This document shows, in pieces, positions 22,049 through 37,858 of a stretch of DNA of 64,000 nucleotides. Position numbers and translations under genes: made by a program. The notes below the pieces were generated by a model. The model saw only the letters and a list, made by a program, of their open reading frames with translations. It did no database searches and was not told the DNA's origin. Origin of the DNA: Planctomycetes bacterium UBA1146 (GTDB lineage Bacteria > Planctomycetota > UBA8108 > UBA1146); assembly GCA_002311345.1 (NCBI GenBank), contig DCAA01000006.1, forward strand, positions 14,532-78,531. The letters run 5' to 3'. The stretch's first letter is position 1. Each line of letters opens with the position of its first letter.

Positions 22049-25000
22049 ATGCAAGAGAGTGGAACCAGCAAGAGATGGAGCGGCCGACTTGTTGGCCTTC
22101 TGGATCCTTCAGATCCACGACTGACTGACGATCGCCTGGCACCGATCCTGCGTGATTTTCTGGAACAGTACGACTCTGTTCTCGATGAACTCGATGACGA
22201 GGATGTTCTCCGGTCTCTGGCAGAAGATCTCCTGACAACCTTCAACCTGTTTCTGAAGCGGAAAAAAGAGGAGATTCTTGTCCACCTTTCCGCTGAAGAG
22301 ACTCCCCAAGAAGAATCCAGTACCACCTTCATCGATGTAGTGTGCAAGGATCAACCATTCATCGTGGATACCCTCGAGATGATTCTCGATGAATTTCACC
22401 TGGAGGTGATCAGCAAGCATACCGCCAGTGCTCCTGTGATCCGCGATCGCGACGGCACCATACAGGCCATCGATGGAACCGCGGCCAAGGCCAGGGACGA
22501 AATCATCTGTCATTTCGAGATCAGTGATATCTCGAAACAGGAAGTTCGAGAGCAACTGCTGGAACAGATCCGAGAGAGGCTCTCGATGGCCGCAATCGCT
22601 GTCAAGGATTTCAAGCGAATGAAAGGGGTGCTGCGCGATTCGATCCGGTCGATCCGACGCTCGGCAGCAGGTGATCCCGAGGGGGATTACAATCAGACTC
22701 GCAATCTGCTCGAATGGTTGTTACAGGATCATTTCATACTGTTCGGTGTCAAGCGCTGGGCTTGCTCTGACGAATCCCTCAGTTCTCTCGAGGAGGATAT
22801 TTCCCTCGGGATTTCATGTCCCGATTCAGAGGATGACGAAGTCATCCGTCATGCGATCGAACGACTCGGCAGCGATAACCCGCCAATAGATCGACTGGTC
22901 TCCTTCAAGGGGATGGCCGAATCATTCATTCACCGTCAAGGAAAGATCGACCATATCGTTCTGAAAGAGCCGGGGGGTCTTTCCTCGACCCGGTTTGTGC
23001 ACATCTGGGGTCTATTCACCTTCAAGGCGGTCCAGACCCCCGGAGATCAAATTCCTCACGTGCGTAACAAATTCGAGCGAGTCATTTCACAGCACTCCTT
23101 CCCGAGGGGCGGAATGCGTTACAAGGCCTACCAGAACTCCTTCAACTCGATACCGGTGGAGTTCCTGTTCCAGGCGCAATCCAGCGAAATCGATGCTGTC
23201 ATCCAGGCGATTCACTTCGTCGAAAGATCGAAGGAGATTCGCGGGCATCTGGTCGTCGATGAAGAACGTCGCAAGGGGTTGTACTTCCTGATCACCCCAC
23301 GAGACGGATATTCCGAGGAACAACGATCCAGGATCGAGGAGATTCTGTTCGAGTTGATGGGTGCAAGTTATTCCGATTCCCGGGTCAAACTGGGAAAGCA
23401 TGGCACCGTACTGCTCTCTTTCTTCTTCACTGCTACCGACAAGTTACACGAGGTCACCCCCGAGCAGATCGAGGAGAAGGTACGACTGGTCGCCGGATCC
23501 TGGTCAGATCGCCTGCATCGGCAACTTCATCTCGACATCGGCTCAGCAGCAGAATCGCTGTTTCGCAGCTACCGTGATGCGTTTCCAAAGGGGTATCAGA
23601 TCAGCCATTCCCCTGATGAGGGGGTACAGGATATCGAGAAACTGGAGCAGATTCGTCCCTCCGATGAGTTCGGGATGGCCTTCAGTGTTTTCCGAAACGA
23701 GATCGATCGTGACAGGAGTTCTGCGCGCTTGAGGATCTATCAGCGCAAGAACCTGTTTCTGTCGACGACATTGCCGATTCTGGGTAACTTCGGCCTCGAG
23801 ATCGTCGATCAGAACGCTTTTCAGGTCTCTCCATCAACCGGAGAGAAACTGACCATCGATACCTTTCAGGTGCATGGTGTAACTACAGATGACCATCCCC
23901 TGGTGACACGATCCGCGCTGGTCGTCGATGCTCTGAAATCGATCTTCAATGGATCCAGTAGTAGTGATCTTCTCGATAGACTCGTTCTCGAGGTAGGAGT
24001 CGATCACCGCGATGTCGACTTGATCCGAAATCAACTCCACTTCCTCCACCAACTGGGAATCTCAACCACCATCGCTTTTGCCTCGGGGACTCTGTGCCAA
24101 CATGCTGGCATCACGAGGAAGTTACTGGAGTACTACCACATCCGATTCGACCCGGATCTGGACCTGGAGATGTGTGAGAGAAAATCAGAATCGGCGGAAA
24201 TCCACGGTGATATCCTTCGCGCTCTCAATGACGTTCGATCCAGTGCACAGGACATCTTTCTTCGTAGGGTTCTCGGGATCTTCGAATCGACACTCAGAAC
24301 CACCCGATTTCATCACAATCAAGATCCGCTCCAGGCATACAAGTACGACTCCGTCGCCTTACCCGTGGGCGCTCACCCGAGACCATGGAGAGAGATCTTT
24401 GTTCATCACCCGGAGGTCGAGGGAGTCCATCTGCGTGGCGGACCTCTGGCCCGAGGAGGTCTGCGGTGGTCTGATCGGACGACCGACTACCGAACAGAGG
24501 TACACGGTCTGCAACGTACCCAGATGGTCAAGAATGTGCTCATCGTTCCGGTTGGAGCAAAGGGTGGATTTATCCTGCGCAAACCGGCATCGGATCGAGG
24601 GGAGAGGAGAGAGCAGGCTGATCGACTCTACAGGGTCTTCGTCGAGGGACTGCTGAGACTGACCGATAACGTGGTCGATCAGCAGGTGGTAGTTCCTGAA
24701 CGTACAATTCGTTGGGACGGAGATGATCCTTACCTGGTCGTGGCCGCCGACAAGGGCACCGCTCACCTGTCCAATACCGCCAACGAGATTTCGAAGGAAC
24801 ATGGTTTCTGGCTCGGAGATGCGTTTGCCTCCGGTGGCAGCAATGGATACGACCACAAAAAACTCGCCATCACGGCAAGGGGATCGTGGGAGCAGGCGAA
24901 ACTTCACTTCCGGAAACTTGAAATCGAATTCGAAAAGGATCCCTATTCGGTCGTAGGTATCGGGGATATGAGTGGCGATGTGTTCGGTAATGGCATGCTG

Positions 25001-26842
25001 CTGGCACGAAATGCCAAGTTGATCGCTGCTTTCAATCATCTGGATATCTTCATCGATCCCGATCCTGACCTGGAATTGGCTGCAAAGGAACGGGAGCGGC
25101 TGTTCAAACTGAAGAGATCGAGTTGGCGAGATTATGATCCAGAGTTGATTTCCGCAGGAGGAGGGGTTTTCGACAGGAGTGAGAAAAAGATCAGCCCTTC
25201 TCCGGTTGCCAGAGTGCTGCTCGGTTTGCCCGGTAGTGGAGACTTCTCACCGGAAGAAGTGATCCGCTCCATCCTCGGTGCGGAAGTCGACATGATCTAC
25301 AACGGAGGGATCGGTACTTTCATCCGATCTTCCCAGGAGAGTAATCGAGATGTCAACGACGCTTCGAACTTTGCCTGCAGGATCGCAGCCGATGCTGTGC
25401 GTGCCCGCATGGTCATCGAGGGCGGAAATCTCGGAGTGACTCCCAAGGGCAGAGTTGAACTGGCCCGCGCCGGAACGCAGATCAATACCGACTTCATCGA
25501 TAACTCGGGTGGGGTGGATTGTTCTGACCACGAGGTAAACCTGAAGACCCTACTGCATGATGTGGTTCGCTCGGGTGCGATCACCCTGGAAGAACGAAAT
25601 CAGGTCCTCATCGATGTTCAAGCAGATGTTTGTGAACAGGTGCTCGACAACACGCGAGAACAGGGTCATCTGCTCGGCCTCGATGAGGTTCGTTCCAATA
25701 GTGACCCCTTCTCCTTCGAGAGAACCATGATGATCCTCGAAGATCGGGGAGTCCTGGACCGGGAGGCGGAATCTCTGCCGAGTCACGAGGAACTTGCGAC
25801 TAGACATGCAGCAGGAGGTGGGCTGACTCGACCGGAACTCGCCGTTGTCGGAGCACACGCGAAGATGGATGTCTATCGTCGTCTTCTCAAGCAACCAGAG
25901 GGTCGAGTCGATGAGAACAGACTTCTCTTCGAATATTTTCCCGAGAAGATTCGAGAGCAATTTCCCGAATCGATCGCGAAGCATCAATTACGTCGAGAGA
26001 TCGCGATGACGGTGTTGACCAACAAGATCGTGGATCGTGGCGGTTCTTCATTCTGCCTCGATATGGAGAGAGAGACGGGAAGATCCATCGGTCATGTCGC
26101 GAGATCATATCTGATGGCCGATGATCTCATCGGTGCCGAGGAGATGAGAAAAGAAATCCTTGCACTCGAGAACATCTCTTCAGAAGTGGTCTACACTTCT
26201 CTGGTACGAATCGAGGAGGCTCTGCGCAGGACCGCTGCCTGGCTGCTGTCGACCAATGACGATGACCGTCTCGACCGCATCGAAGCCCTCATCGCCGAGG
26301 GAGTGAGGCCGCTGCAGGAGTACGAGGATTCGATTCCCGGTTGTCTCGCGGGCCCGGAACTGGAGCGTCATGAAAATCACCTGCAGGAGGCGATGGCACT
26401 CGGGTTGTCCGAAACTTTCGCCCAGCGTATGACGAAGTTCGAGTATCTCACCGCCGGGGTGCGGATTCTGGACATCAGTCGTAGTTTCGAAATCCGTGTT
26501 CCTGATGTGGCCCGCCTCTACTATTACCTGGGCAATCGCAGTGGACTCCATCCGCTGGTGAGAAAGTGTGACGAAGCGGATTTCTCGGGCCGCTGGGATT
26601 CGCTCTCGATGCGGATTCTGCGCAATACCATCCTCGATGGTCTCTGGGCTCTGGTGGCCAAGATCTGCAGCAAGGCGCCAAAAGACCCCAAAGATGGCTG
26701 GATCGAGCAACTGGTCGAGGAGCTGCGCAGAAAGCCGAGTTTCAAGGCGATGGAATCGGACATTCGCCGCATCGGCTCGGAAGAACTCAGCATCGCATCG
26801 GTACAGGTTCTGAGTGTGCGTTTCCGCAGATTCGTTCAGTGA
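22049..26842 (+). CDS. gdh: NAD-specific glutamate dehydrogenase of the large ~180 kDa bacterial GDH family.
   Basis: 1597 aa. Family-typical core GGLRWSDRTTDYRTEVHGLQRTQMVKNVLIVPVGAKGGFILRKP and a GDH catalytic region (GDMSGDVFGNGMLL). Confidence 0.85.
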   Translation: MQESGTSKRWSGRLVGLLDPSDPRLTDDRLAPILRDFLEQYDSVLDELDDEDVLRSLAEDLLTTFNLFLKRKKEEILVHLSAEETPQEESSTTFIDVVCKDQPFIVDTLEMILDEFHLEVISKHTASAPVIRDRDGTIQAIDGTAAKARDEIICHFEISDISKQEVREQLLEQIRERLSMAAIAVKDFKRMKGVLRDSIRSIRRSAAGDPEGDYNQTRNLLEWLLQDHFILFGVKRWACSDESLSSLEEDISLGISCPDSEDDEVIRHAIERLGSDNPPIDRLVSFKGMAESFIHRQGKIDHIVLKEPGGLSSTRFVHIWGLFTFKAVQTPGDQIPHVRNKFERVISQHSFPRGGMRYKAYQNSFNSIPVEFLFQAQSSEIDAVIQAIHFVERSKEIRGHLVVDEERRKGLYFLITPRDGYSEEQRSRIEEILFELMGASYSDSRVKLGKHGTVLLSFFFTATDKLHEVTPEQIEEKVRLVAGSWSDRLHRQLHLDIGSAAESLFRSYRDAFPKGYQISHSPDEGVQDIEKLEQIRPSDEFGMAFSVFRNEIDRDRSSARLRIYQRKNLFLSTTLPILGNFGLEIVDQNAFQVSPSTGEKLTIDTFQVHGVTTDDHPLVTRSALVVDALKSIFNGSSSSDLLDRLVLEVGVDHRDVDLIRNQLHFLHQLGISTTIAFASGTLCQHAGITRKLLEYYHIRFDPDLDLEMCERKSESAEIHGDILRALNDVRSSAQDIFLRRVLGIFESTLRTTRFHHNQDPLQAYKYDSVALPVGAHPRPWREIFVHHPEVEGVHLRGGPLARGGLRWSDRTTDYRTEVHGLQRTQMVKNVLIVPVGAKGGFILRKPASDRGERREQADRLYRVFVEGLLRLTDNVVDQQVVVPERTIRWDGDDPYLVVAADKGTAHLSNTANEISKEHGFWLGDAFASGGSNGYDHKKLAITARGSWEQAKLHFRKLEIEFEKDPYSVVGIGDMSGDVFGNGMLLARNAKLIAAFNHLDIFIDPDPDLELAAKERERLFKLKRSSWRDYDPELISAGGGVFDRSEKKISPSPVARVLLGLPGSGDFSPEEVIRSILGAEVDMIYNGGIGTFIRSSQESNRDVNDASNFACRIAADAVRARMVIEGGNLGVTPKGRVELARAGTQINTDFIDNSGGVDCSDHEVNLKTLLHDVVRSGAITLEERNQVLIDVQADVCEQVLDNTREQGHLLGLDEVRSNSDPFSFERTMMILEDRGVLDREAESLPSHEELATRHAAGGGLTRPELAVVGAHAKMDVYRRLLKQPEGRVDENRLLFEYFPEKIREQFPESIAKHQLRREIAMTVLTNKIVDRGGSSFCLDMERETGRSIGHVARSYLMADDLIGAEEMRKEILALENISSEVVYTSLVRIEEALRRTAAWLLSTNDDDRLDRIEALIAEGVRPLQEYEDSIPGCLAGPELERHENHLQEAMALGLSETFAQRMTKFEYLTAGVRILDISRSFEIRVPDVARLYYYLGNRSGLHPLVRKCDEADFSGRWDSLSMRILRNTILDGLWALVAKICSKAPKDPKDGWIEQLVEELRRKPSFKAMESDIRRIGSEELSIASVQVLSVRFRRFVQ

Positions 26843-26854
26843 CCTCTGACCGCT

Positions 26855-27829
26855 TCACTGTTTCAGGATGACGATCGACAACAGCCACAGCGCATAGAGC
26901 AGCAGCAAGAAGAAGCCGAGACCATTCTGGAGGCGTGGCGATTTCATGGGGACCAGTAGCAGGCAGATCGAAATCGTCATGATGACCATCACCACCAGAT
27001 CCATCTGGATTTCACCGATTCGAATCTCGAGGGGGCTCACGATGGCGGCAGCCCCGACGATGGCGATGAAGTTGAACAGGTTTGATCCCAGCACGTTTCC
27101 GACGGCGATTTCTGAAGACCCCCTGCGGAACGCAGCAAGTGAGGCGAACAGTTCTGGAGCACCGGTGCCTGCTGCGACGATGGTGAGGCCGATGGTGCTC
27201 TCCTTTATGTCGAGCGATTTGGCGAGGGTGATGGCTCCATTGACGAGGAACTCACCTCCTATCCATAGTAGCAGGGTTCCCAGGATCAGAGACGTTGTCA
27301 CTTTGAGGGAACTCTCTCCGGTGGTCATCTCATCGACCTCTCGGAGGACTGAGGATTGTTTGCGTCCGGTCCTGTAGATGAGCAGCAGCAGGATCAAGAA
27401 AACGATCTCCAGCACGATTCCTACGCTCCATGTCAGAGTTGATATTCCGTCGGATCTCTGATCGAGGTAGAGAGGGATCAGAAGTGCCAGTGTCGATAGG
27501 ACCAGCAATTTTATTTCGAACGATCCGGCCTCGATCCGACTTTGCCGGTTCAAGATGAGTACCAATCCCAGCACCAGTCCGAGATTGAAAATGTTGGAAC
27601 CGACGATGTTGCCGATGGCGAGCCCCGAACTCTGCTCGAACTGAGCGATCACGCAGACGACCAGTTCCGGAAGAGAAGTTCCGGCAGCGACCACCGTGAT
27701 TCCTATGAAGAGGGGCGAGACCTTCATCCGTAGAGCAAGGTTTGCGGCCCCGGCGACCAGGAAATCCCCTCCCCAGGCCAGGATCGCAAGCCCTCCCAGC
27801 AGGCTCGCAACCGCCATTAGATTCTCCAC
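26855..27829 (-). CDS. Ca2+:cation antiporter of the CaCA family (YrbG-like Na+/Ca2+ exchanger).
   Basis: Two internally repeated alpha-repeat halves (GDFLVAGAANLA...GTSLPELVVCV and GGEFLVNGAITLA...GTGAPELFASL), which are typical of CaCA, with ~10 transmembrane segments. Confidence 0.75.
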   Translation of the reverse strand: MENLMAVASLLGGLAILAWGGDFLVAGAANLALRMKVSPLFIGITVVAAGTSLPELVVCVIAQFEQSSGLAIGNIVGSNIFNLGLVLGLVLILNRQSRIEAGSFEIKLLVLSTLALLIPLYLDQRSDGISTLTWSVGIVLEIVFLILLLLIYRTGRKQSSVLREVDEMTTGESSLKVTTSLILGTLLLWIGGEFLVNGAITLAKSLDIKESTIGLTIVAAGTGAPELFASLAAFRRGSSEIAVGNVLGSNLFNFIAIVGAAAIVSPLEIRIGEIQMDLVVMVIMTISICLLLVPMKSPRLQNGLGFFLLLLYALWLLSIVILKQ

Positions 27830-27839
27830 CGGTGCCTTT

Positions 27840-28982
27840 CTAGAAGGGGGCGAACAGGATGCTGAAGAAGGCTGTGACCGGTTCCTGTTCGCGAAGATCC
27901 TCGGTGGAGTCGCGCAGCAGGGTCAGGGTTTCTCGGGCATCCTGATACAACTGCTTGTCGGTGATGAGGCTGTACAAGGTACCAGGACCGGTTTCGATGG
28001 ACGAACTGATACTGGCGATGGATGAGACGGCATTATCCAGCTTCGTGGCGAGTTCCTTGTCGTGGAGAATGCGACTGAGTGATCCGGTGCCGGATTCTGT
28101 CAGTTGTTCGGAGGCGGCTCTCCAATTGGCCACGGTATCTCTCCAGGTCTCTTTGAAGGTCGCATCGTTGAGAATCATGCCGGCGAGACCATCGGTACCG
28201 GTCAGTTTCTCCGTGATCTTGTCGATCCTGTCGACAGCAGTCTCCACTTTTTCACGAGCAACTTGGTCCTTGAACAGCCAGCCTATCGTGCCCTTTCCGT
28301 CGTTGAACTCCTTCATCGCCAGATCGATTCGGCCCAGTACCGACTTGAACTGTTTGTGCTGATCCGAATCTTCCAGGAACAATGATCCCAGGATTCCATT
28401 TCCCTTGGAGAGATTGGTGGTGAGCATTTCCATATTTCTGACCGTGGTCAGGAAATTTTCCTTTGCCTCTGGGTCCTTCAGGAGACCGCCGAAGATGCCC
28501 TCTCCGGAGTCGAGTGCGGTCAGCAAACTATCGAGTGAAGCCAGGCCGTGCTCGATCCGCTCTCGATTTTCCCCCAGGATCTTGCCCACCATGCCCAGTA
28601 TGTCTCCTTCGGATTTCCCCCTCAGATTATCGATGGGGACCAGATCCCCTGTCCCCGGATCGTAGTGGAGGTAGGAACCACCCAGGGCACTTGCGGGCTT
28701 GACCAGGAAGGTGTGATCTTCTCGTGGACTGAGATCGCTGCTCAATTTGATACGCACGAGGGCGCGTCCACGATCCTGTTGCAGTTCGATCTTGTCGACG
28801 GCACCTGCCCTGAGGCCCCGGACCCGTACCGGATCACCGGGTCCCAGTCCTCCCACGTTCTCGAATCCGATCTCGAGTATCAGATCGGATCCGGTCGGGA
28901 ACTGTCGCAAGTAAAAGGTGAGTGCCCCGACCAGCGCCAGTGAGGCCAGAAAAATGACTCCGACGATGAAATCTCTTGTCAT
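27840..28982 (-). CDS. mlaD: MlaD/Mce-family substrate-binding protein with a long C-terminal helical extension.
   Basis: N-terminal transmembrane anchor, then an MCE domain (ILEIGFENVGGLGPGDPVRVRGLRAGAVDKIEL). At 380 aa it is about twice the size of E. coli MlaD. It overlaps the mlaF stop by 4 nt. Confidence 0.7.
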   Translation of the reverse strand: MTRDFIVGVIFLASLALVGALTFYLRQFPTGSDLILEIGFENVGGLGPGDPVRVRGLRAGAVDKIELQQDRGRALVRIKLSSDLSPREDHTFLVKPASALGGSYLHYDPGTGDLVPIDNLRGKSEGDILGMVGKILGENRERIEHGLASLDSLLTALDSGEGIFGGLLKDPEAKENFLTTVRNMEMLTTNLSKGNGILGSLFLEDSDQHKQFKSVLGRIDLAMKEFNDGKGTIGWLFKDQVAREKVETAVDRIDKITEKLTGTDGLAGMILNDATFKETWRDTVANWRAASEQLTESGTGSLSRILHDKELATKLDNAVSSIASISSSIETGPGTLYSLITDKQLYQDARETLTLLRDSTEDLREQEPVTAFFSILFAPF

Positions 28983-29776
28983 GATAGACCGCTCTCTTCC
29001 TTGTCTGGCTGGTCGGGCTCGAGTTGCTCGCTCGTCTCGCGGCCCAGTGGGCCTTCGACCAGTCCGTGAATGAATTGCTGTACTGCTGGATCGCTGGATT
29101 CCTGGATCTCATGTGAATTGCCGAGAGCGATCACCTTGCCTGCATGGAGCAAGGCGATGCGGTCGGCGACTTCGAAGGCGGAACGCATGTCGTGGGTCAC
29201 CACCACCTGTGTGATCCCCGTTCCGTGAAGTTTCTGGATGAGGCCATTGATGATGCTCGATGAGATCGGGTCGAGACCTGAAGTGGGTTCGTCGTGGAGC
29301 AAGATCTCCGGATGGCCGATGAGGGCACGGGCCAGTCCAGCGCGTTTTCTCATGCCACCCGAGATCTCGGAGGGCATTTTGTCACCATGCCCGTCCAGTT
29401 CGATTTCCGACAGGACCTCCTCGACTCGCTCCTGGATCTCCTTTTCCTTCATGGAGTGACGCTCACGAAGAGGAAGTCCGACGTTGTCAGCGATGGAGAG
29501 CCAGTTGAGCAGGGCCCCGTCCTGGAACAGATAACCGATCCTGCTGCGAATCTCGAGCAGAGCCGCCTGATGGCGAGCCGAGATCTCCTGGCCCAGTACC
29601 TCCACCCGGCCTTGATCGGCGGTCATCAGACCGACGATGTGTCTCAGGGTGACGCTCTTTCCGGTGCCGGAGCGTCCCAGGATGACCAGTGTTTCTCCCT
29701 GCTTTACCTCCAGGTCGAGTCCATCGAGGATCGTTCTACCACCGAGTTTCTTGTGGACATTTTCGAGGCGGATCAT
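28979..29776 (-). CDS. mlaF: ABC transporter ATP-binding protein, MlaF-like.
   Basis: The start is taken at internal MIRLENVHKKLGG (ATG 29774-29776, ATGA overlap with mlaE); the track ORF extends upstream through mlaE. It has Walker A (GRSGTGKS), an ABC signature (ISGGMRKRAGLARAL) and Walker B (LLHDEPTSGLD). Confidence 0.8.
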   Translation of the reverse strand: MIRLENVHKKLGGRTILDGLDLEVKQGETLVILGRSGTGKSVTLRHIVGLMTADQGRVEVLGQEISARHQAALLEIRSRIGYLFQDGALLNWLSIADNVGLPLRERHSMKEKEIQERVEEVLSEIELDGHGDKMPSEISGGMRKRAGLARALIGHPEILLHDEPTSGLDPISSSIINGLIQKLHGTGITQVVVTHDMRSAFEVADRIALLHAGKVIALGNSHEIQESSDPAVQQFIHGLVEGPLGRETSEQLEPDQPDKEESGLS

Positions 29777-30630
29777 GACAGAAAACTCCAGGAGATGTAG
29801 TAGCCCAGGATGATGACGAGAAGGAATGAGACGACCACTGATCTTCGAGCGGCCTGACCGACACCCGTGGCTCCGCCTCGGGTGAGGAGACCCTGAGTAC
29901 AACCAACGGTGGCGATGGTGATGCCGAACACGACCGACTTGAGCATCCCGGTGAACACATCCCGAAATTCCAGGCTCTCGAGTGCATCGGTGCGATATGC
30001 CAGCCACCCGACATCGAACTGGGAATTGGCGACCAGGCTACCTCCGAGGATTCCGATGAATGCCGCGAAGATGGTCATCACCGGAGTCACGAGAGTGAGA
30101 GCCACCATGCGTGGCAGCACCAGAAAGCGAATGGGGGGGATCGACATGATGCGAAGTGCGTCGATCTCCTCGGAGATCTTCATCGTGCCAATTTCTGCTG
30201 CGATTCCACTGCCGAGACTTGCGGTGAGGATGAGAGCGGTCATGAAGGGACCCATCTCGCGTATCATCGAGACGGCAACGATCGGCCCGATGAGACTTTC
30301 CTGCCCCAGCTCCTCCAGCGAATTACCGCCATTGAGCGCCAGGATCATACCGGTGAAGAGGGCGACCACGGAGGTGACGAGAAAAGACCCGATGCAGTAG
30401 CTGTAGCACAGATCGAGACTGTCACGGATCCGTCGGCGACTGAACAAGAAGGGCGTGTTCAACATCGTCCGGACGAGGAGGACCAGACCAAATCCGGTGG
30501 AATCAGCGCTACGCCGAAGGAAAGACAAGAGGGGAGCGATGTAGCGACCGATGAACACTCCCAGTTTCTCGACCAAACTTCTCATCCTGCTCCATCCCCG
30601 CGGCCGTGGTCGGCCGTTCCCCAGTTGCAA
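29773..30630 (-). CDS. mlaE: ABC transporter permease, MlaE-like.
   Basis: Polytopic permease with conserved MlaE-like segments (IAVSMIREMGPFMTALILTASLGSGIAAEIGTMKISEEIDALRIMSI). The start is either 30630 or the internal Met at ~30585. Confidence 0.75.
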   Translation of the reverse strand: MQLGNGRPRPRGWSRMRSLVEKLGVFIGRYIAPLLSFLRRSADSTGFGLVLLVRTMLNTPFLFSRRRIRDSLDLCYSYCIGSFLVTSVVALFTGMILALNGGNSLEELGQESLIGPIVAVSMIREMGPFMTALILTASLGSGIAAEIGTMKISEEIDALRIMSIPPIRFLVLPRMVALTLVTPVMTIFAAFIGILGGSLVANSQFDVGWLAYRTDALESLEFRDVFTGMLKSVVFGITIATVGCTQGLLTRGGATGVGQAARRSVVVSFLLVIILGYYISWSFLS

Positions 30631-30673: not shown

Positions 30674-31987
30674 TCAGAGAGAAATGTACAGGAGACGCCA
30701 GCGAGAGTCATCCTGTCGGACGCCTCTCTCTCGTGAGAGAAGTCCACCCAGGACCGAGAAACCACCTTGTTCGGTGCCGCTTTCGGCGGTCAAGAGCCCC
30801 CAGAGAAGTTCCAGACCCCAGTAGTCTTGCTCCTGGCGCCATCGAAGGATTTGCCAGGCGCGCGAATGAGACCAGGAGATCCCGTCCTGGTCATCGAAGG
30901 GGAGGATCGCCGGGGCAGATCCTGTCTTGCGTCCACTGGCATCGGTCTCCCATCGTGCCAGCGGCCACAGCAGATAATTCGATCTCTTGCCTCGCTCGGG
31001 ATCCTCATCGGTGATGCTGCGCCAGATAGGAAAGAGACGCCGTACTTCTCGGCGCCGACCCGCCGCCTGCTGATCTTCCCACTGCCAGATGGGCCACAGG
31101 AAGAAGCCACTGCTGAGACCGGGTCGCTCATGTCTTCCCCAGATGGGGTAGAACTCGAGACGAGTCCATTCCCCCTTCCGTTTCCCGATGGTCCAGGGCA
31201 GCAGTGACCAACTCGATGTCTCGCTCCGAGAATCATGTTCTTCGGTCCATAGCGGGTAGAGGATCGTTCTTGCGATTCGAGATTTCGATTCGATCTTGCC
31301 ATAGAAGGGCCACAGCCACCTGGAGATGGTTGGATTGTCCGTATCGAGTTGAGTTCTCGTTTGGTGCCAGAAGGGCCACAGGATGTAGGTGGATTCGTCA
31401 CGCAATTTTCCATCGCTGGTGAAACCCCGACTGCGGGAATAAAAGGGAAAGACGCGCAGTCCCTGACGAAGAGGACCTTCCTCGATTTCGACGAAAGGAA
31501 ACAGCCAGTAGGTGGAGACCTGGTCTCTGTCGCGCAGTCGTGCCCACAGTGGGAACAGGACGAAGTCGATCCGATCCTTTCCCAGGATCCCCTTGATGGT
31601 TCCACCGAGCGGGGCAAATGCGAAGTAGTTCCCTTCTTCATCGTCGAATCCCCACAGGAAAAAGGGCAGCAAGAAGCCATCGATATCCTCGCTCCCATCG
31701 GTATGGGTGTAGGCCATCCGGTGGTAGAGGGGGATGAACCAGGTCTCCCGGACCCGCTCCTCGATTCGGTCGCGAAAGAAGGGGTAGAGCACCCGAATTT
31801 CTTCGCTATCGGGCGTCTTGCTATGAGAGAAGAAGGGCCAGAAGTGTTCCGATTCCCGCACGATTCCGCCAGCAAGTTGTTCGCTGCGTTCGATGTAAAA
31901 GGGAGGAAGCCCCCGATCGGCATCGACTGGGGTTACGCATCCTGAGACCAGGGTGCTGCAAAAGATGGTCGCCAGCAAGATCCTCAT
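30674..31987 (-). CDS. Lipoprotein built from ~16 tandem aromatic-Pro repeats, of unknown family.
   Basis: The start is taken at MRILLATIFCSTLVSGC, a lipobox, with ATG at 31985-31987 that overlaps the upstream stop by ATGA. A [LFY][WLFY]P[FLI][WFY] core recurs every ~22-27 aa: FWPFF, LYPFF, FIPLY, LLPFF, LFPLW, LFPFV, VFPFY, LWPFW, LWPFY, LYPLW, FYPIW, LWPIW, LFPIW, LLWPL. Confidence 0.6.
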   Translation of the reverse strand: MRILLATIFCSTLVSGCVTPVDADRGLPPFYIERSEQLAGGIVRESEHFWPFFSHSKTPDSEEIRVLYPFFRDRIEERVRETWFIPLYHRMAYTHTDGSEDIDGFLLPFFLWGFDDEEGNYFAFAPLGGTIKGILGKDRIDFVLFPLWARLRDRDQVSTYWLFPFVEIEEGPLRQGLRVFPFYSRSRGFTSDGKLRDESTYILWPFWHQTRTQLDTDNPTISRWLWPFYGKIESKSRIARTILYPLWTEEHDSRSETSSWSLLPWTIGKRKGEWTRLEFYPIWGRHERPGLSSGFFLWPIWQWEDQQAAGRRREVRRLFPIWRSITDEDPERGKRSNYLLWPLARWETDASGRKTGSAPAILPFDDQDGISWSHSRAWQILRWRQEQDYWGLELLWGLLTAESGTEQGGFSVLGGLLSRERGVRQDDSRWRLLYISL

Positions 31988-34900
31988 CGGTCCAACCGGA
32001 CGGGTAGCATCAGATCGGGGCAGCATCCTTCCCAGATCCGGTCGAGATCCCTGTGCAGAACCATCCCCGGAGTGAGAGCGAGATACTTGGTCGCGCCGCT
32101 GCCTGTATCATCGTCGGTGACGGCGATGCCGATTCTCATACGCATACCTGGCCAGGGTACGAAATCATCTTCACCTCTCTGTTCAGCGATGCCCTTCCAT
32201 GGGATTGTCATCTCGTAAACTGCTCCCGTTCCATCGGCTTTGCGAACCACGATGTGTTCCCCTTCTGGTCCATCTTCATCCTCATCCCTGAAGGGGGGAG
32301 GATCTTCTCCTGACTCATCTGTTTCTCCCTCCTCGGGAACCGGCTGAGGCCGCGGAGGTACGAAGGCCAGGGTCAACACCTGATCATCGCTACGTGGCCG
32401 AACCCCTCCATCGCCTTTCGTATCGAGTACAAGGATCAGGCAATCACCGATCCACCTCTTTGCGTCTCGGTCGTGGCTGGTGGTGTTATCGTCATCGATG
32501 TCCACGGCAATATGCAGCCCTTCTTCAGACCAGCCGAGGAAAACTCGACCGGAGAGGTCTGCCCGGTCTTGCCAGGGGATCCGTGGTTCGCCCGGCCCCT
32601 GTAGCCCCCGGATGAAGCGTGGCCTCTCGAGCGGAATGCCACGGGTAGCATTCCACGGCTCATCCAGTGATCCGTCGATGATGGGTGCGACCTGCATCCT
32701 GGCAATCTGGTGATCCTTTCGTGCCTCCAGGGCTTGTTGTCGCGCTGCTCCTTCGAGCATCCAACTGGCTGTGGCTCGCTGCAGCGGATCCATGTTCAGA
32801 TCGAGGATCGTACGCTCGATCAAGTCGATGGCCTTGTGCGACTCCTGCAAGTCGAGCAATCGAACGGCCTCATCTTTCCAGTTGGTTGACTCTTGCAGGG
32901 ATTTCCACGCCGTGATCTCTCGCTTACGTGCCGTGACAGAACGGAAACCTGCTGCACCACGGGATGAAACGGTGAAAAGCGTATCGCCGACCACTGATGC
33001 ATGGTGGAGCCGGCCGAGCGGTTTGATGTGGTCCGTCACTTCCTGGATTCCCTGGCGTGAGGTGAGCGGGGTACCGGTCGATCGATCGAGTATGGTCACC
33101 TCGCCCCGAAGTCGATCGGCCACCACGACCCAGTCTCCACGAGGCTGGAGATTCACCGAGTCATAGGCAGGAGCCAGTTGGTGCGTCCACTCCAGTTCCG
33201 CTTCCGGGATCGCCAGTAGAGACAGCCCGAGTGTCGATCTCAGTTTCAGTATGGTCCTCTTCTGGAAATCGCCGCACACCAGCAGTAGTTCATCTGCATC
33301 GATCTGGAGTGCCGTGATTCGACGACGTTCTTCGGAGAGGTGGCGTTGCCAGCCTACCTTTCCCGTCTTCATGTCGAGTCCGAGCAGGGTGGGTCGATCC
33401 GCCCTCCAGTACAACTCGCATACCAGTTGATCTTCCGAGGGTGAGGGGTGCATTTGCGAGATGATGTGGGGCAGGTCCGTGGTCCACAGGGTCTCTCCGT
33501 CATCGGAGTATCGACTCACGTTACCGCCTTCGAGCGCCACGATGAATCCCCCCGGAACCAACACAGGAGTCGAAGCGAGAGAAGCTGCTGCCTCCTCCAG
33601 TTTCAGCTGCTGGAGAATCTCACCATCCTCCATCGAGCGCAGTTCGACCATGTCAGGGATTGCATACCCGATGAGCAGTCGTTCATCCCGGATCACCGGG
33701 TCATCGAGCAGAGCACCCCTTCGAGGTTGCGTCCACAGTCTCTGGCCGCTTCTGGCATCGAAGGCGATGATGCGTTGATCTTCGGTGACGGTGATCAGGG
33801 TCCCTGCACCCGCACACGATTGCGCGATACGAATCTCCTGATCCGGAAGATCATCATCGGATCGGATCCGGTGACTCCAGGCAACAACGCCATCCTCGAG
33901 TTGCAATCTCCAGATCTTGGTTCGATCGTGGAAGATCAGACCTGTGTCATCGATGTGAACAGGTGCAGAAGGAAGATCTCTGCGTGAAAGGATGATGCTT
34001 CCTCTGATCTCGATCGGGTCTCGATTCAGATCAGTTCTCCACAACAGAACACCGTCGCGTGAGTCCAACAGTTGCGCAGATGAGCTGGTGAGGATCAACA
34101 CACGCGAGTCATCCTCGAAATGCTCGTTGCCAGAGAGGGGCCAGATCTCACTGGAGCGAGTCTGACCCAGTTCCAGTCTGCCACTCCAGGCACGATGAAG
34201 TGGAAGGCCCGGGTGGTTTCTGCGGACTTCAGGCAGTTTCGTGATTTCGTTGCGCAATTGCTGAAGTCGTTCCCCGAGGGTGACCGTTCGCTCGATTCCA
34301 TCGATGATCCGGGTCATGGGACGGTCTCCATCGGATCTATTCAGTTGTTCGATCTGATCGATGGCTTGTCTCAGGCGTCCCTGTTCACGCAGAACTTCAC
34401 ATCGCCTCAGTTTTCCGATCACGGCCTCGTCGCTATCCGGCTCACGAACGATCAACAGGTCGATCTGGTGGAGGCAGCGGTCCAGATCCCCGATGCGGTA
34501 ATAGGCTTCGGCAGCTTCCAGTCGCGCATTTCTTCCGGTAGCGCAGCCAGGTCGCATCAGAGCCAGAGTTTGCCAGCGAGCAGGTGAAGGAAAGTCTGCC
34601 AGTTCTCTGGCCTCAGCGACAGCGCGGACCTCACGCTGGGCAACTCTCTGCGGGCCCCCGGCGGCTCGATCCAGTTCTAGTAACAGGTGAGTGAAGGCGG
34701 CCTCTGCTGGCACCCAACTGTTGTTTCGAGATTCGACCAGTGTAGTCGCGAGTAGACGGGGCGATTCATCCAGCATCCTTGTGCAGATCAGGGTGGCACA
34801 GCCCAGTGCTCCGGCACGCAGCGAATGAACCGCACGCTGCCAGCCAGATGCGATTCGATCTGGCGGGTGCGATTCGGCACCGATGAGAGCGGATTCCAGC

Positions 34901-36993
34901 AAGAACCTCTCGGTCTCGGGGAGCACCAGATCGGAGCGTTCCAGTCGAAGCTCCACGGTCCGGCGTAGAGCTTCCTGCTGGGGCGAGTCGCCGGACAGGT
35001 CCAGCGACTGTCGTGGATAGTGTCCCGTTAACACGCTGGTCCAGAGATCGTGTTTCGCCGTCTCGGAAGGCACCAGGATTCGCACATCGACGCCTGATCT
35101 GGTCAGTATTGCCCCGTCGAGAGGCTGCATCTCACGTGAGCTAGCTCCGATCCCCTGGACCGATTGAAGCACCCCCTCCGGGCTGTACGAAATAATCGCG
35201 TCGCCCGAGCTGACCCACCAGCCGCCCCCTGCAGCAGCGATCACGTCTGCGATCTCTCCAGAAAGCGGTGCGGGCAGTGCACTTCGCCACAGGAATCGCG
35301 GTGAATCATCGCTACCACAACTCCAGCAAACTAGTTCTGATCCCTCGATCACCACCAGAGAATCTCCCGTCGAAGAGAGGCACCATCGACGCGCAGAGCG
35401 AGTGGGGATGGTTTCCAGGATCTGGCCATTGCGCGCATCGAGGATGGAGATTCCCGGGGCTCCGGGGGGCAAGGCGAAGAGCCGGAAACCGCTTCTACGC
35501 AGCAACTGGCCACTGGCAGGGTTTTGCATCAAGTGGTTGCGAAGGCCAAAACTGCTCGGACTGTTCAGATCCTGCATCCACTCCACCGCGCCATCCGAGG
35601 TGCGCAGGCTGATGACGGTTCCACGACCGCTCGACCAGTGGATTCGACCGGTTCCGGCCACCGGAGTTGCCGGCGAGGACCGCAGTGCCAGCCACGTGGA
35701 ACCGGTCGTTTCTCCCAGATGGCGAACCCAAAGGACTCTACCCCGCTCGTCGATGTGACTCGCGAAAGCCTCGACACGATCCCCCTCACTCGCGACCGCC
35801 ACGACAACGATGCCGCCCGGAACCTTACACGGGGAAGAAAGGGCCCGGATCGCTTGAGGCGTCTCTTCGGGTCCGAGGATGGCGTCGAGATCGACCTGCC
35901 ACAGTTGCTGACCGGTAGATCCATCGAGTGCCTCGATGCGGTCGGTGAGGCTCGCGATGATCATCGATCCACGTCGAACCGGACGAAGGATGGTTCGAGG
36001 AAGTGGATTCCTGTGCTGCTGGGGGAGAACCCGTCTCCAGATCTCCTCGGCGCTGGCGAGATCTATCGCACGGATCTCACCAGGAAACTGGATCCACACC
36101 CGTGAATCATCGGAGACAGCTCCGACACGCCCCTGGGCGAATTGCCACGGGGCCTCGAATCGATCAGATTCGCCGAGGCCAGCCTCGCAGTCGATGGGAA
36201 TCAGCACCTCGTCTTCATCGATGGGGGGGCCGACGGCTGTGGTTGCCATGGAAGACGATTCGACACCGGGATTCTCGATCCAGCGCAGTTCGACGGATCG
36301 TTGCCAGCTGTGGAGATCACCGCGTTCGAGTGCAGATTCTGCCAGAGACCTGGCCAGAGGCGCAGGAATTACTCCGATCGGAAGGTCCATCAGCAAGCAG
36401 GTACGTCGACGATCCGCACCAGCATCAAGACCCGGCACAGGAGTTTCAGGGATGCGAGGCAAGGTGCGCAAACGGATCTCGTCGATCACTCGATCCCGAA
36501 GCGGCACCTTCAGTTGTGCGACCGTTCCCCGCAGATAGACACCGGCACCGACATGGAGTCCTCCTCCCACCGGAGTACTCCCGCCCGGATCCCCGTCGAC
36601 GAGTCGTTCGGCGAGGGCCGCCAGGGAATCGAGGATTTGTGCCTCGACCCCGGTTTCCAGGCTCTCCTCGATGCGCCGCACCAGAGGAGTGAGTTCGTTG
36701 CTACTGGCCGGGATCCACACCGGATCGGCCGCCCACACCGGTGTGATGGTCAGAGTCATCGATGCGCAAACCAGCAGTGCGCAGAGTAGCCTCACGGAGA
36801 TGCCGCGAGGCAGCAGCGAGAAGATGCTGCGAAGGTGTCGCGAGTTCGGGTCTGACGGTCTCATCAGAAGGCCTCCTGGAGTTTCTCCGGGGTCCCTCTG
36901 CTTGTAAGAGATGTGTCCCTCTGGCTCAACCAGTGGTGGCGGAAGAGCGGCTGCCGATGGAGCCCAGAAGGGCCGCTGCTGCGTCTGCAACAC
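31984..36993 (-). CDS. Giant secreted protein (~1630-1670 aa) with PQQ-like β-propeller repeats, TPR segments and a C-terminal CBM9-like domain.
   Basis: Several PQQ-type blade motifs (GQQLWQVDL, GAVEWMQDL, DGVLLWRTDL, DGVVAWSHRI, GQRLWTQP, GETLWTTDL, GKVGWQRHL). The C-terminus resembles a family-9 carbohydrate-binding domain (VAPIIDGSLDEPWNATRGIPL...FLGWSEEGLHIAVDIDDD). The likely true start is the internal MRPSDPNSRHLRSIFSLLPRGISVRLLCALLVCASMTLTITPVWA at 36864, which has a signal peptide and removes the overlap with the response-regulator gene. Confidence 0.6.
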   Translation of the reverse strand: MLQTQQRPFWAPSAAALPPPLVEPEGHISYKQRDPGETPGGLLMRPSDPNSRHLRSIFSLLPRGISVRLLCALLVCASMTLTITPVWAADPVWIPASSNELTPLVRRIEESLETGVEAQILDSLAALAERLVDGDPGGSTPVGGGLHVGAGVYLRGTVAQLKVPLRDRVIDEIRLRTLPRIPETPVPGLDAGADRRRTCLLMDLPIGVIPAPLARSLAESALERGDLHSWQRSVELRWIENPGVESSSMATTAVGPPIDEDEVLIPIDCEAGLGESDRFEAPWQFAQGRVGAVSDDSRVWIQFPGEIRAIDLASAEEIWRRVLPQQHRNPLPRTILRPVRRGSMIIASLTDRIEALDGSTGQQLWQVDLDAILGPEETPQAIRALSSPCKVPGGIVVVAVASEGDRVEAFASHIDERGRVLWVRHLGETTGSTWLALRSSPATPVAGTGRIHWSSGRGTVISLRTSDGAVEWMQDLNSPSSFGLRNHLMQNPASGQLLRRSGFRLFALPPGAPGISILDARNGQILETIPTRSARRWCLSSTGDSLVVIEGSELVCWSCGSDDSPRFLWRSALPAPLSGEIADVIAAAGGGWWVSSGDAIISYSPEGVLQSVQGIGASSREMQPLDGAILTRSGVDVRILVPSETAKHDLWTSVLTGHYPRQSLDLSGDSPQQEALRRTVELRLERSDLVLPETERFLLESALIGAESHPPDRIASGWQRAVHSLRAGALGCATLICTRMLDESPRLLATTLVESRNNSWVPAEAAFTHLLLELDRAAGGPQRVAQREVRAVAEARELADFPSPARWQTLALMRPGCATGRNARLEAAEAYYRIGDLDRCLHQIDLLIVREPDSDEAVIGKLRRCEVLREQGRLRQAIDQIEQLNRSDGDRPMTRIIDGIERTVTLGERLQQLRNEITKLPEVRRNHPGLPLHRAWSGRLELGQTRSSEIWPLSGNEHFEDDSRVLILTSSSAQLLDSRDGVLLWRTDLNRDPIEIRGSIILSRRDLPSAPVHIDDTGLIFHDRTKIWRLQLEDGVVAWSHRIRSDDDLPDQEIRIAQSCAGAGTLITVTEDQRIIAFDARSGQRLWTQPRRGALLDDPVIRDERLLIGYAIPDMVELRSMEDGEILQQLKLEEAAASLASTPVLVPGGFIVALEGGNVSRYSDDGETLWTTDLPHIISQMHPSPSEDQLVCELYWRADRPTLLGLDMKTGKVGWQRHLSEERRRITALQIDADELLLVCGDFQKRTILKLRSTLGLSLLAIPEAELEWTHQLAPAYDSVNLQPRGDWVVVADRLRGEVTILDRSTGTPLTSRQGIQEVTDHIKPLGRLHHASVVGDTLFTVSSRGAAGFRSVTARKREITAWKSLQESTNWKDEAVRLLDLQESHKAIDLIERTILDLNMDPLQRATASWMLEGAARQQALEARKDHQIARMQVAPIIDGSLDEPWNATRGIPLERPRFIRGLQGPGEPRIPWQDRADLSGRVFLGWSEEGLHIAVDIDDDNTTSHDRDAKRWIGDCLILVLDTKGDGGVRPRSDDQVLTLAFVPPRPQPVPEEGETDESGEDPPPFRDEDEDGPEGEHIVVRKADGTGAVYEMTIPWKGIAEQRGEDDFVPWPGMRMRIGIAVTDDDTGSGATKYLALTPGMVLHRDLDRIWEGCCPDLMLPVRLDR

Positions 36994-37858
36994 AGCGCAA
37001 GTAGGTCAGTGGGGGCATTCCAGGAATCTCGGCGTGATCGGCATCGATCACGAAGAGGCCTTCTAGTCGCCCCAGCCAGAAGAGAGGAAGAACCACTGCT
37101 GCCTCCTTCTCGGGCAACAGATCGGGAAAATCTGCCTCTCGCCATCGTTCTCCTGGATCGGTGAATCGACCCACTGGCAAGGAAAAATGTTCGGCCGGAA
37201 GTTGTGTCGAGCTGGAAGAACATGGGATCAGCAGCTGATCCTTGCGCACGAATAGAAGTGCACGGCAGCCGGTCGGAATGGTAGAGAAGATCAGATCCTG
37301 CAGTTGATCCTCCGTGGCGGATGCGATCTTTCGAAGCAATTGATCGACCGGGAATCCAGCTTCGGTGGCGCGGCGTTCTCTTTGTTGAGCCTCCAACCGG
37401 TGCAGGGTTAGTTGCAATTCTCTCTGCAGGTCTCGGTTTGTCTGGCGCAACTTCCGCCGTTCGGCTGCGCGAAGAAGCACTTCGAGGAGATCCTTCTGCA
37501 GGTCCACGATCGGCTTTTCGATGTAGGAGTAGGCTCCCAGCCTCATTGCGGCCAGCGCACTCTCGAGCGTTGCCGCTCCAGTTGCCATCACAACCTCGAC
37601 TTCGGGTGCGATCTTCTTGAACTCCCGCAACACGTCGAGTCCGTCGATCCGGGGCATCCTCAGATCTACCAGTGCAACATCGGGTTCGCGTTGGTGCAGC
37701 ATCGCCAGCCCCTCCTCGCCACCGCTTGCCGACCTGACTTGAATTCCTTCCGATTCGAGAAATAGTTGCACGCTTTCTCTGACGAAGGGGTCGTCATCGA
37801 TGATGAGGATTTCCAGTTCTGTGGCCGAGCCTGGGTTCATCGGGATTGTCCCTGCCAC
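36926..37858 (-). CDS. Response regulator with a REC receiver domain and a C-terminal GAF-like domain.
   Basis: Receiver motifs (ILIIDDDPFVRESV..., phospho-acceptor VALVDLRMPRIDGLDV, T/K region VVMATGAATLESALAAMRLGAYSYIEKP). The C-terminal ~170 aa are uncharacterised. It overlaps the kinase gene by 22 nt. Confidence 0.75.
   Translation of the reverse strand: MAGTIPMNPGSATELEILIIDDDPFVRESVQLFLESEGIQVRSASGGEEGLAMLHQREPDVALVDLRMPRIDGLDVLREFKKIAPEVEVVMATGAATLESALAAMRLGAYSYIEKPIVDLQKDLLEVLLRAAERRKLRQTNRDLQRELQLTLHRLEAQQRERRATEAGFPVDQLLRKIASATEDQLQDLIFSTIPTGCRALLFVRKDQLLIPCSSSSTQLPAEHFSLPVGRFTDPGERWREADFPDLLPEKEAAVVLPLFWLGRLEGLFVIDADHAEIPGMPPLTYLRCVADAAAALLGSIGSRSSATTG

Follow-up and report, generated by a model that had tools for sequence, protein, structure and literature searches.

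A hairpin-repeat lipoprotein as a candidate membrane-side partner of a needle-type MlaEFD lipid transporter in Planctomycetota

A repeat lipoprotein encoded with MlaE, MlaF and MlaD

The stretch analyzed here (the window) comprises 64,000 nucleotides of contig DCAA01000006.1 from Planctomycetes bacterium UBA1146, and it contains on its minus strand a gene for a lipoprotein that consists almost entirely of tandem aromatic-proline repeats. The genes for MlaE, MlaF and MlaD, which belong to an ATP-binding cassette (ABC) lipid transporter of the MCE (mammalian cell entry) type, follow it directly downstream on the same strand. Judged from the genomic context, a functional link between the repeat lipoprotein and this MlaEFD transporter is well supported and, in our view, highly probable. 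Our preferred reading, to which we assign a probability of roughly 0.55, is that the lipoprotein serves a needle-type MCE lipid transporter as a partner on the membrane side, in the way that PqiC, MpcA or MlaA do, while being new and not homologous to them. The coordinates of the features are collected in Table 1.

Table 1 Features of the lipoprotein gene and its operon (positions are those of the window)
Feature	Position	Strand	Detail and basis
Hairpin-repeat lipoprotein, coding sequence	30674..31987	minus	437 residues, stop codon at 30674-30676; open reading frame list, translation, homologs, AlphaFold2 model
Predicted signal peptide and lipobox, residues 1-17	31937..31987	minus	MRILLATIFCSTLVSG followed by C; read from sequence
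Predicted beta-hairpin array, residues 25-437	30677..31915	minus	41 strands; polar turns alternate with 18 aromatic-Pro and 3 hydrophobic Gly/Ser-variant turns
Segment of highest conservation outside the repeat, residues ~119-140	31567..31633	minus	G-x-Y-F-A-x-[FA]-P-x-G-G-x-x-K-x-x-L-G-x-D
MlaE-family permease	29773..30630	minus	Pfam PF02405, E=9e-69; TIGR00056 above cutoff
MlaF-like ABC ATPase	28979..29776	minus	Pfam ABC_tran; best NCBIfam match MlaF
MlaD/MCE protein, 380 residues	27840..28982	minus	Pfam MlaD; N-terminal transmembrane helix, one MCE domain, C-terminal extension of about 250 residues
ATGA start/stop overlap of the lipoprotein gene with the upstream gene	31984..31987	minus	sequence
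Upstream exported multi-propeller protein, 1669 residues (PQQ_2/BamB-like)	31984..36993	minus	Pfam, NCBIfam

The lipoprotein begins with MRILLATIFCSTLVSGC, in which a short n-region of positive charge leads into a hydrophobic core and then a lipobox of the V-S-G-C type, the N-terminus being read from the sequence as M-R-ILLATIFCSTLVSG-C17. The stretch MR-ILLATIFCSTL-VSG-C17 fits the lipobox pattern [LVI][ASTVI][GAS]-C, with the codon of Cys17 at 31937-31939, which bears out the lipobox lipoprotein proposed in an earlier note on this DNA. By these features the protein is a signal peptidase II-type lipoprotein precursor with predicted acylation. An alternative ATG lies 13 codons upstream (32026) and has been adopted by one database annotation; we favor the start at 31987 because the N-termini of homologs read MRFLL...PGC.

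The operon is tight. A 43-nucleotide spacer containing GGAGG separates the stop codon of the lipoprotein gene from the TTG start of the MlaE gene, and ATGA overlaps join MlaE to MlaF (29773-29776) and MlaF to MlaD (28979-28982). The ATGA coupling of the lipoprotein to a giant upstream protein, which the earlier note had described, is present in the sequence as well, with a junction that reads ...GAC CGA TGA overlapping ATG AGG (...CGATGAGG...). Together, the three ATGA overlaps suggest translational coupling across the whole module. The true start of the 1669-residue upstream protein is probably internal to its reading frame, because a signal-peptide-like stretch ends near residue 88. A promoter/terminator consensus scan of the operon returned counts at the level of shuffled sequence.

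The MlaD protein of the window matches the MCE domains of YebT, PqiB and Mce1 in the PDB, and a 100%-identical database entry (P0333) carries the PF28544 'Helical_needle' domain together with PF02470. An AlphaFold2 monomer model built from a 19-sequence alignment is helical at residues 128-377, with a low predicted local distance difference test (pLDDT) score of 56. Between long predicted helices, residues ~160-345 contain five or six copies of a motif G-x-G-x-[LI]-x-x-[LI]-x-x-D (GIFGGLLKD, GILGSLFLED, GTIGWLFKD, GLAGMILND, GSLSRILHD and GTLYSLITD), and the C-terminus of the protein matches the NCBIfam model of a Leptospira Mce protein.

The repeat of the lipoprotein is genuine, as the earlier note had maintained. 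The mature protein contains the five-residue motif [LFYVIMW][WLFYIV]P[FLIWVM][WFYVILA] 14 times, compared with 0.38±0.62 times (maximum 4) in 20,000 composition-preserving shuffles. When anchored on family-conserved prolines, the array consists of 18 units (P29, 51, 69, 86, 108, 126, 146, 164, 181, 205, 227, 245, 264, 281, 299, 320, 342 and 363) spaced 17-24 residues apart, with a mean of 19.6±2.2, and is completed by three degenerate C-terminal units in which Gly or Ser replaces Pro (LLWGLL, VLGGLL and LLYISL). These values replace the ~16 copies and the period of ~22-27 residues given earlier. Fourteen prolines are invariant in 75 sequences, down to ~23% identity, and 1255 aligned units from the family yield the consensus F-x-L-W-P-F-Y-G. 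Across these units, positions -2, -1, +1 and +2 relative to the proline are 84-98% hydrophobic, while at positions -9 to -5 and +5 to +10 charged residues make up 32-50% and hydrophobic ones no more than 27%, in agreement with the charged linkers noted before. In the family profile, hydrophobicity is restricted to positions -4 to +2 around the proline, with mainly charged or polar residues farther away.

The most conserved part of the protein outside the repeat spans residues ~119-140. Alignments of 75 and 142 sequences show Y121, P126, G129 and D138 in this segment to be either invariant or conserved to 90% or more. The peptide pattern G[LI][LI]GKDRID within this segment was one of the two conserved patterns picked for the search for relative loci. 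The segment is a candidate functional or interaction site.

Predicted hairpin architecture and its relation to known folds

The AlphaFold2 model of the lipoprotein, calculated from a 75-sequence alignment, has a mean pLDDT of 93.7 and a predicted template modeling score (pTM) of 0.79, with 351 of its 437 residues at a pLDDT of at least 90. The model is all-beta, with 41 strands that average 6.0 residues in length and two 4-residue helices at residues 370-378. In a turn-by-turn map of the model, the odd loops are the aromatic-Pro turns, which are 57-86% hydrophobic with one exception at 29%, and the even loops are polar (0-40% hydrophobic). As the two kinds of turn alternate strictly, the repeat unit corresponds to one beta-hairpin of ~20 residues. 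The modeled protein is a series of ~20 consecutive hairpins in which one edge of the array is predicted to form a continuous greasy stripe and the opposite edge to be hydrophilic, and this would hold for both faces because successive strand residues face opposite sides of the sheet. The pTM value suggests a compact overall arrangement. Direct-coupling analysis of 272-319 sequences (effective number of sequences ~220, two gap treatments) gave no usable signal for strand pairing or ring closure, its top pairs being alignment or indel artifacts.

The lack of a recognizable family, also stated in the earlier note, holds throughout the searches. A scan of the lipoprotein against Pfam-A and NCBIfam, which covers WD40, PQQ, Kelch, MORN (PF02493), Ldl_recept_b, CW_binding and PF04333, gives no match at E≤10, and a profile of 75 homologs finds no match among the PDB sequences, a set that we take to include the PqiC-like structures 8Q2C, 2IQI and 6OSX. 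Nothing hidden emerged from a Pfam scan of ten diverse family members either, the sole domain being an FHA domain in one fusion protein. A Foldseek search of the model against the PDB returns no superposing structure (best template modeling score (TM-score) 0.27). Its local matches of high probability (0.99-1.00) are engineered single-layer sheets of OspA and MORN-repeat proteins (the latter from BFVD, TM-score 0.20-0.24), all of them antiparallel hairpin arrays, and the top 50 matches contain no beta-helix protein and no PqiC, LptE or CsgG. We therefore read the predicted fold as one of consecutive antiparallel hairpins that has a local likeness to MORN and OspA and no global match in the PDB. 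MORN proteins and the OspA sheet arrange hairpins in an extended antiparallel sheet, as the lipoprotein may also do, with a similar unit of ~20-23 residues, but global superposition is poor (TM-score ≤0.27) and the MORN signature is absent. An aromatic-Pro turn on alternate loops combined with polar strand bodies is not known to be part of the MORN or the OspA consensus.

The earlier note had instead placed the repeats in a beta-propeller or beta-solenoid, and we considered whether the protein could have a known repeat fold in divergent form (a propeller of the WD40, PQQ, Kelch or YWTD type, or a solenoid) and serve as a generic protein-protein scaffold. Tandem WD domains are indeed among the top Foldseek E-values, and the upstream neighbor is itself a PQQ/BamB-like propeller protein. 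However, the propeller matches (tandem WD, IFT-A and YWTD/megalin) have TM-scores of 0.11-0.14 with root-mean-square deviations above 20 Å, and no Pfam repeat family is found at E≤10. The unit is one hairpin of ~20 residues and not a four-stranded blade of 40-45 residues, blade faces would be polar and incompatible with propeller packing, and the high-probability matches are not parallel solenoids. A propeller is thus not supported, and we regard the whole class of explanation as very improbable.

A second alternative is an integral outer-membrane beta-barrel that acts as a trans-membrane pore, similar to chloroplast TGD4 or to the barrel at the C-terminus of Veillonella MlaD. This would agree with an all-beta protein that has a signal peptide, and porin-like barrels are among the known MCE partners (PMC13631591). 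Furthermore, in the Planctomycetes-Verrucomicrobia-Chlamydiae (PVC) clade the protein often finishes on an aromatic residue, the last of a C-terminal motif R-L-L-Y-I-P-[FW]. The motif was considered as an outer-membrane protein beta-signal and rejected, as it is one more repeat unit and many members carry a polar tail behind it; the protein of the window ends ...LLYISL. The strands average 6.0 residues, fewer than the 9-10 or more expected of such a barrel, and in their distal halves both faces carry polar or charged residues, which makes them too short and too polar to span a membrane; no outer-membrane protein barrel is found among the Foldseek matches. Direct tests disfavor the barrel and the propeller, a solenoid also appears improbable, and we hold a pore-forming barrel to be highly unlikely.

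A widespread family next to MlaE, MlaF and a needle-type MlaD

A single-sequence search with the lipoprotein retrieves 226 homologs; when a profile is used against 1.84 billion cluster representatives, 3018 clusters (50% identity) are retrieved at E≤1e-3, of which 1243 remain at E≤1e-30. Most of these clusters are 430-520 residues long and are matched from end to end. The number of homologs and clusters, together with the 14 invariant prolines and the confident AlphaFold2 model, excludes the possibility, raised in the earlier note, that the repeats are an artifact of low complexity or of a wrong reading frame. In the searched sources all family members are named 'hypothetical protein'. A literature search did not find a description of the family, and look-ups of the clusters found no cultured, named organism that carries it. 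A search of the window with the family hidden Markov model finds no second copy.

Where organisms are named, the family occurs in Planctomycetota, Kiritimatiellia, Pontiella, Verrucomicrobia and metagenome-assembled genomes (MAGs) labeled 'Deltaproteobacteria'. A search for close relatives yields 23 loci, most of which are labeled as Planctomycetota MAGs, and marine MAGs supply the genomic records that come nearest (97-99% identity), nearly all of them again labeled Planctomycetota. Among the relatives, a 99% identical contig (L008, NVWX01000005.1) is labeled 'Dehalococcoidia bacterium' and a 70% relative (L013, QNYK01000057.1) is labeled 'Bacillota bacterium'. Nearly all the remaining relatives bear a Planctomycetota label, and the products of the locus include envelope proteins of diderm type; these two labels are probably binning errors.

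The genomic position of the family is strictly conserved across phyla. In 11 of 11 distant loci (25-34% identity), the family gene adjoins MlaE, the ABC ATPase and an MlaD protein with PF28544 Helical_needle. These loci come from Planctomycetota (L001, L003 and L033), Kiritimatiellia (L002), Pontiella (L004), Verrucomicrobia-type organisms (L006 and L034) and Deltaproteobacteria MAGs (L007 and L032), and also include an FHA fusion (L031) and a non-lipidated member (L035). In L032 and L035 the order is MlaE-MlaF-MlaD-lipoprotein, as opposed to lipoprotein-MlaE-MlaF-MlaD elsewhere; since MlaD stays beside the family gene in this altered order, the adjacency has survived rearrangement. Other neighbors vary between the 11 loci. 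When the proteins of the window were compared with 34 loci using tblastn, the same arrangement was found in every close relative with enough flanking sequence. The conserved module is therefore made up of four genes, which encode the hairpin-repeat protein, MlaE, MlaF and a needle-type MlaD.

Among the variable neighbors, the gene immediately upstream of the family member encodes a transporter of the MMPL family (resistance-nodulation-division type, sterol-sensing-like) in L006 (4819-7596) and L034 (4124-6976). In the Pontiella locus L004, an FtsX/MacB_PCD permease (2034-3296) overlaps the start of the family gene, and the Kiritimatiellia locus has lpxB/lpxI nearby. The MMPL and FtsX/MacB_PCD genes thus add further functions in the transport of lipids or lipoproteins to the surroundings of the module.

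The earlier note had laid emphasis on the giant upstream protein. The pairing with it is real, but it is specific to Planctomycetota: relatives of the 1669-residue protein lie upstream of the lipoprotein in the Planctomycetota loci only (L001 4719-10049, L003 4896-9890 and L033 1352-6961) and are absent from the loci of Verrucomicrobia, Kiritimatiellia and Deltaproteobacteria, where the link to the Mla genes persists. The conserved connection is thus the one downstream, to MlaE-MlaF-MlaD, and the giant propeller protein may be a lineage-specific fifth component.

Relatives of this giant PQQ/BamB-like protein carry a C-terminal CBM9 module, and a carbohydrate-binding module in the upstream partner would suit an envelope scaffold whose aromatic residues bind the cell wall or glycan, in the manner of choline- or glucan-binding hairpin repeats. 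Such a scaffold would place the transporter through the peptidoglycan and have no direct role with lipids. Aromatic-rich hairpin repeats of ~20 residues are typical of cell-wall-binding repeats, and the repeat length and aromatic richness of the lipoprotein resemble them. Against this, there is no Pfam match to CW_binding or another repeat family, and the CBM9 protein is missing outside Planctomycetota while the Mla link stays. The tip residues of the hairpins are, moreover, aliphatic as much as aromatic: position -2 holds L in 644 of the 1255 units, and position +1 holds F, L or I. Such a surface looks more like one that faces lipid or forms a core than like one on which sugars stack. We consider a wall-binding scaffold to be quite unlikely.

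Proposed role at the membrane side of the transporter

MlaEFD is ancestral and is present almost everywhere in diderm bacteria, as shown by phylogenomics in 2023 (PMC10665443). In that study, MlaA and MlaC were found mainly in Proteobacteria and the PVC group was without the MlaD beta-barrel; its authors asked whether non-homologous proteins replace the missing Mla parts (PMC10665443). Operons of the needle-type MCE proteins studied so far also encode an outer-membrane lipoprotein, as seen for Brucella MpcEFDA (PMC12436622) and for PA3211-3214 and PqiABC (PMC13631591, PMC10897342). As of 2026, the known lipoprotein partners of MCE systems comprise MlaA-like and PqiC-like folds only (PMC13631591).

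The operon in the window resembles these systems closely. PqiC, P. aeruginosa PA3214 and Brucella MpcA are lipoproteins encoded in the operon of a needle MCE protein and have been proposed to cap or dock the needle (PMC12436622, PMC13631591, PMC10897342). This trait, being encoded with a needle-type MCE system, is found for the family in all of the distant loci and in the close loci with enough flank. The Mpc and PA3211-3214 operons also carry an ABC module of the MlaE/MlaF type, and the window operon follows the same four-part logic. The proteins themselves differ: the PqiC-like proteins (ABC_trans_aux) have no sequence similarity to the lipoprotein in either the Pfam or the PDB profile search, and they are small subunits of a homo-octameric ring, whereas the lipoprotein is a single chain of 437 residues with ~20 predicted hairpins.

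MlaA (VacJ) is likewise a lipoprotein partner of its transporter, MlaFED, as we propose for the protein of the window, and the predicted hydrophobic edge and short tether would allow a monotopic placement comparable to that of MlaA. However, MlaA is alpha-helical, is encoded apart from mlaFEDCB in E. coli, and uses the soluble MlaC and a short MlaD (PMC10665443), while the lipoprotein is predicted to be all-beta, is linked to the operon, is paired with a needle-type MlaD and does not match PF04333. The Veillonella MlaD barrel and TGD4 illustrate that the MlaEFD core pairs with non-homologous outer-membrane modules depending on lineage (PMC10665443, PMC12436622). These modules are membrane-spanning barrels, for which the strands of the lipoprotein are too short and too polar.

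We propose that the lipoprotein is the fourth component of the MlaE-MlaF-MlaD (MCE-type) lipid ABC transporter. MlaFE would drive lipid movement at the inner membrane, and a hexamer of MlaD would span the periplasm as a hydrophobic helical tube. The acylated cysteine would keep the hairpin array within ~10 residues of the inner leaflet of the outer membrane, into which the aromatic-Pro edge could insert, and the lipoprotein would receive or cap the tip of the needle. The result would be a protected lipid route that links the lumen of the needle with the outer membrane, with the lipoprotein taking the role of the ring-shaped caps PqiC, MpcA and PA3214, or of MlaA as an inner-leaflet lipid channel, by means of an unrelated fold. 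The parts of this proposal that we infer are the location at the outer rather than the inner membrane, the way the aromatic edge would enter that membrane, any direct contact between lipoprotein and MlaD, and the substrate and direction of transport; for the specific location and docking mechanism we see the balance as even.

The reading as a membrane-side partner draws on the genomic position, the export of the protein, the lipid anchor of its clade, the short tether, the lack of Asp at position +2 and the hydrophobic edge. The tether from the cysteine to the first conserved proline measures 10-11 residues in the lipidated (Planctomycetota) clade. At position +2 the protein of the window has Val, and the 118 lipidated members have A, R, S, L, V, T or K, with Asp in 0 of 118. 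The tight operon, the needle-type MlaD and the lipid-related neighbors (MMPL, FtsX/MacB_PCD and lpxB/lpxI) lend further support.

Several observations weigh against this reading. The +2 Asp rule is that of E. coli and is not validated for PVC bacteria. The strict lipobox pattern is found in 118 of 272 family sequences (more if the variants PGC and PAC are counted), and many members of the wider family have a signal peptidase I (SPI)-type signal peptide and no lipobox, from which it follows that the lipid anchor is not essential to the function of the family. In one protein, P0170 (850 residues; L031 2954-5506), the family array appears to be fused through a transmembrane segment to an N-terminal cytoplasmic FHA domain; if the gene call is real, this fusion could tether the array to the inner membrane, although an artifact of gene calling is possible. 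The repeat also occurs in expanded paralogs with dozens of FPLYW-type hairpin units, namely P0130 (1402 residues), P0147 (1767 residues) and P0285 (1350 residues). P0130 and P0147 are rich in Lys and Asn, which suggests that they come from a low-GC phylum. The one readable paralog locus, that of P0147, has no adjacent Mla genes and has glycoside hydrolase and TonB-type genes nearby, and the repeat is therefore not exclusive to Mla systems. In addition, the ~90 clustered hydrophobic tip residues could form the core of the protein itself, and the length of the MlaD needle is not fixed by its low-confidence model (pLDDT 56).

Some of the same observations would suit a periplasmic lipid-handling element, in which the aromatic stripe serves as a rail or binding surface that exchanges lipids with the MlaD needle, comparable to the MlaC carrier or an LptA/AsmA bridge, and in which the protein is anchored to either membrane or, in the members that are not lipidated, soluble. 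The Mla synteny is the same under this explanation. The many members with SPI-type signal peptides and the inner-membrane tether suggested by the P0170 fusion in at least one lineage would fit it, and MlaC is absent from most non-proteobacterial phyla (PMC10665443). An array of 41 strands would also be long if extended, but the pTM of 0.79 suggests a compact arrangement. In the protein of the window and in its clade, a tether of 10-11 residues holds the array at a single membrane, and the hydrophobic residues are located at the hairpin tips on both faces of the sheet rather than on one concave face as in the grooves of LptA and AsmA. Furthermore, Foldseek retrieved no Lpt, AsmA, LolA or MlaC fold. 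A periplasmic lipid rail therefore appears unlikely.

Returning to the membrane-side partner, a broader and more tentative proposal, to which we give somewhat less than even odds, is that the family represents a third class of lipoprotein partner for MCE transporters, one of new structure that would join the MlaA-like and PqiC-like classes. It would supply the missing outer-membrane end of MlaEFD in Planctomycetota, Verrucomicrobiota/Kiritimatiellia and Desulfobacterota-type lineages, with the aromatic-Pro edge acting as both a monotopic anchor and a lipid gate that docks the MlaD needle. If this is true, one polypeptide does the job of an octameric PqiC ring or an MlaA-porin complex. The family is a concrete candidate for filling the gap in knowledge of inter-membrane phospholipid traffic outside a few Proteobacteria, and, as a fold with no PDB match in a family of ~3000 clusters with no Pfam or NCBIfam model, it would justify a new annotation model.

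A response regulator (36926..37858, minus strand) and an FHA-domain histidine kinase (37837..39603, minus strand) are located just upstream of the operon. The FHA association recurs in L031, where a second FHA gene (1957-2769) adjoins the gene for the FHA fusion P0170. On the other side, a 1597-residue open reading frame on the opposite strand (22049..26842, plus strand) converges on the operon. The MlaD gene is followed by a Na+/Ca2+ antiporter (26855..27829, minus strand), whose position is kept in close Planctomycetota relatives (51-69% identity) and not in the distant loci.

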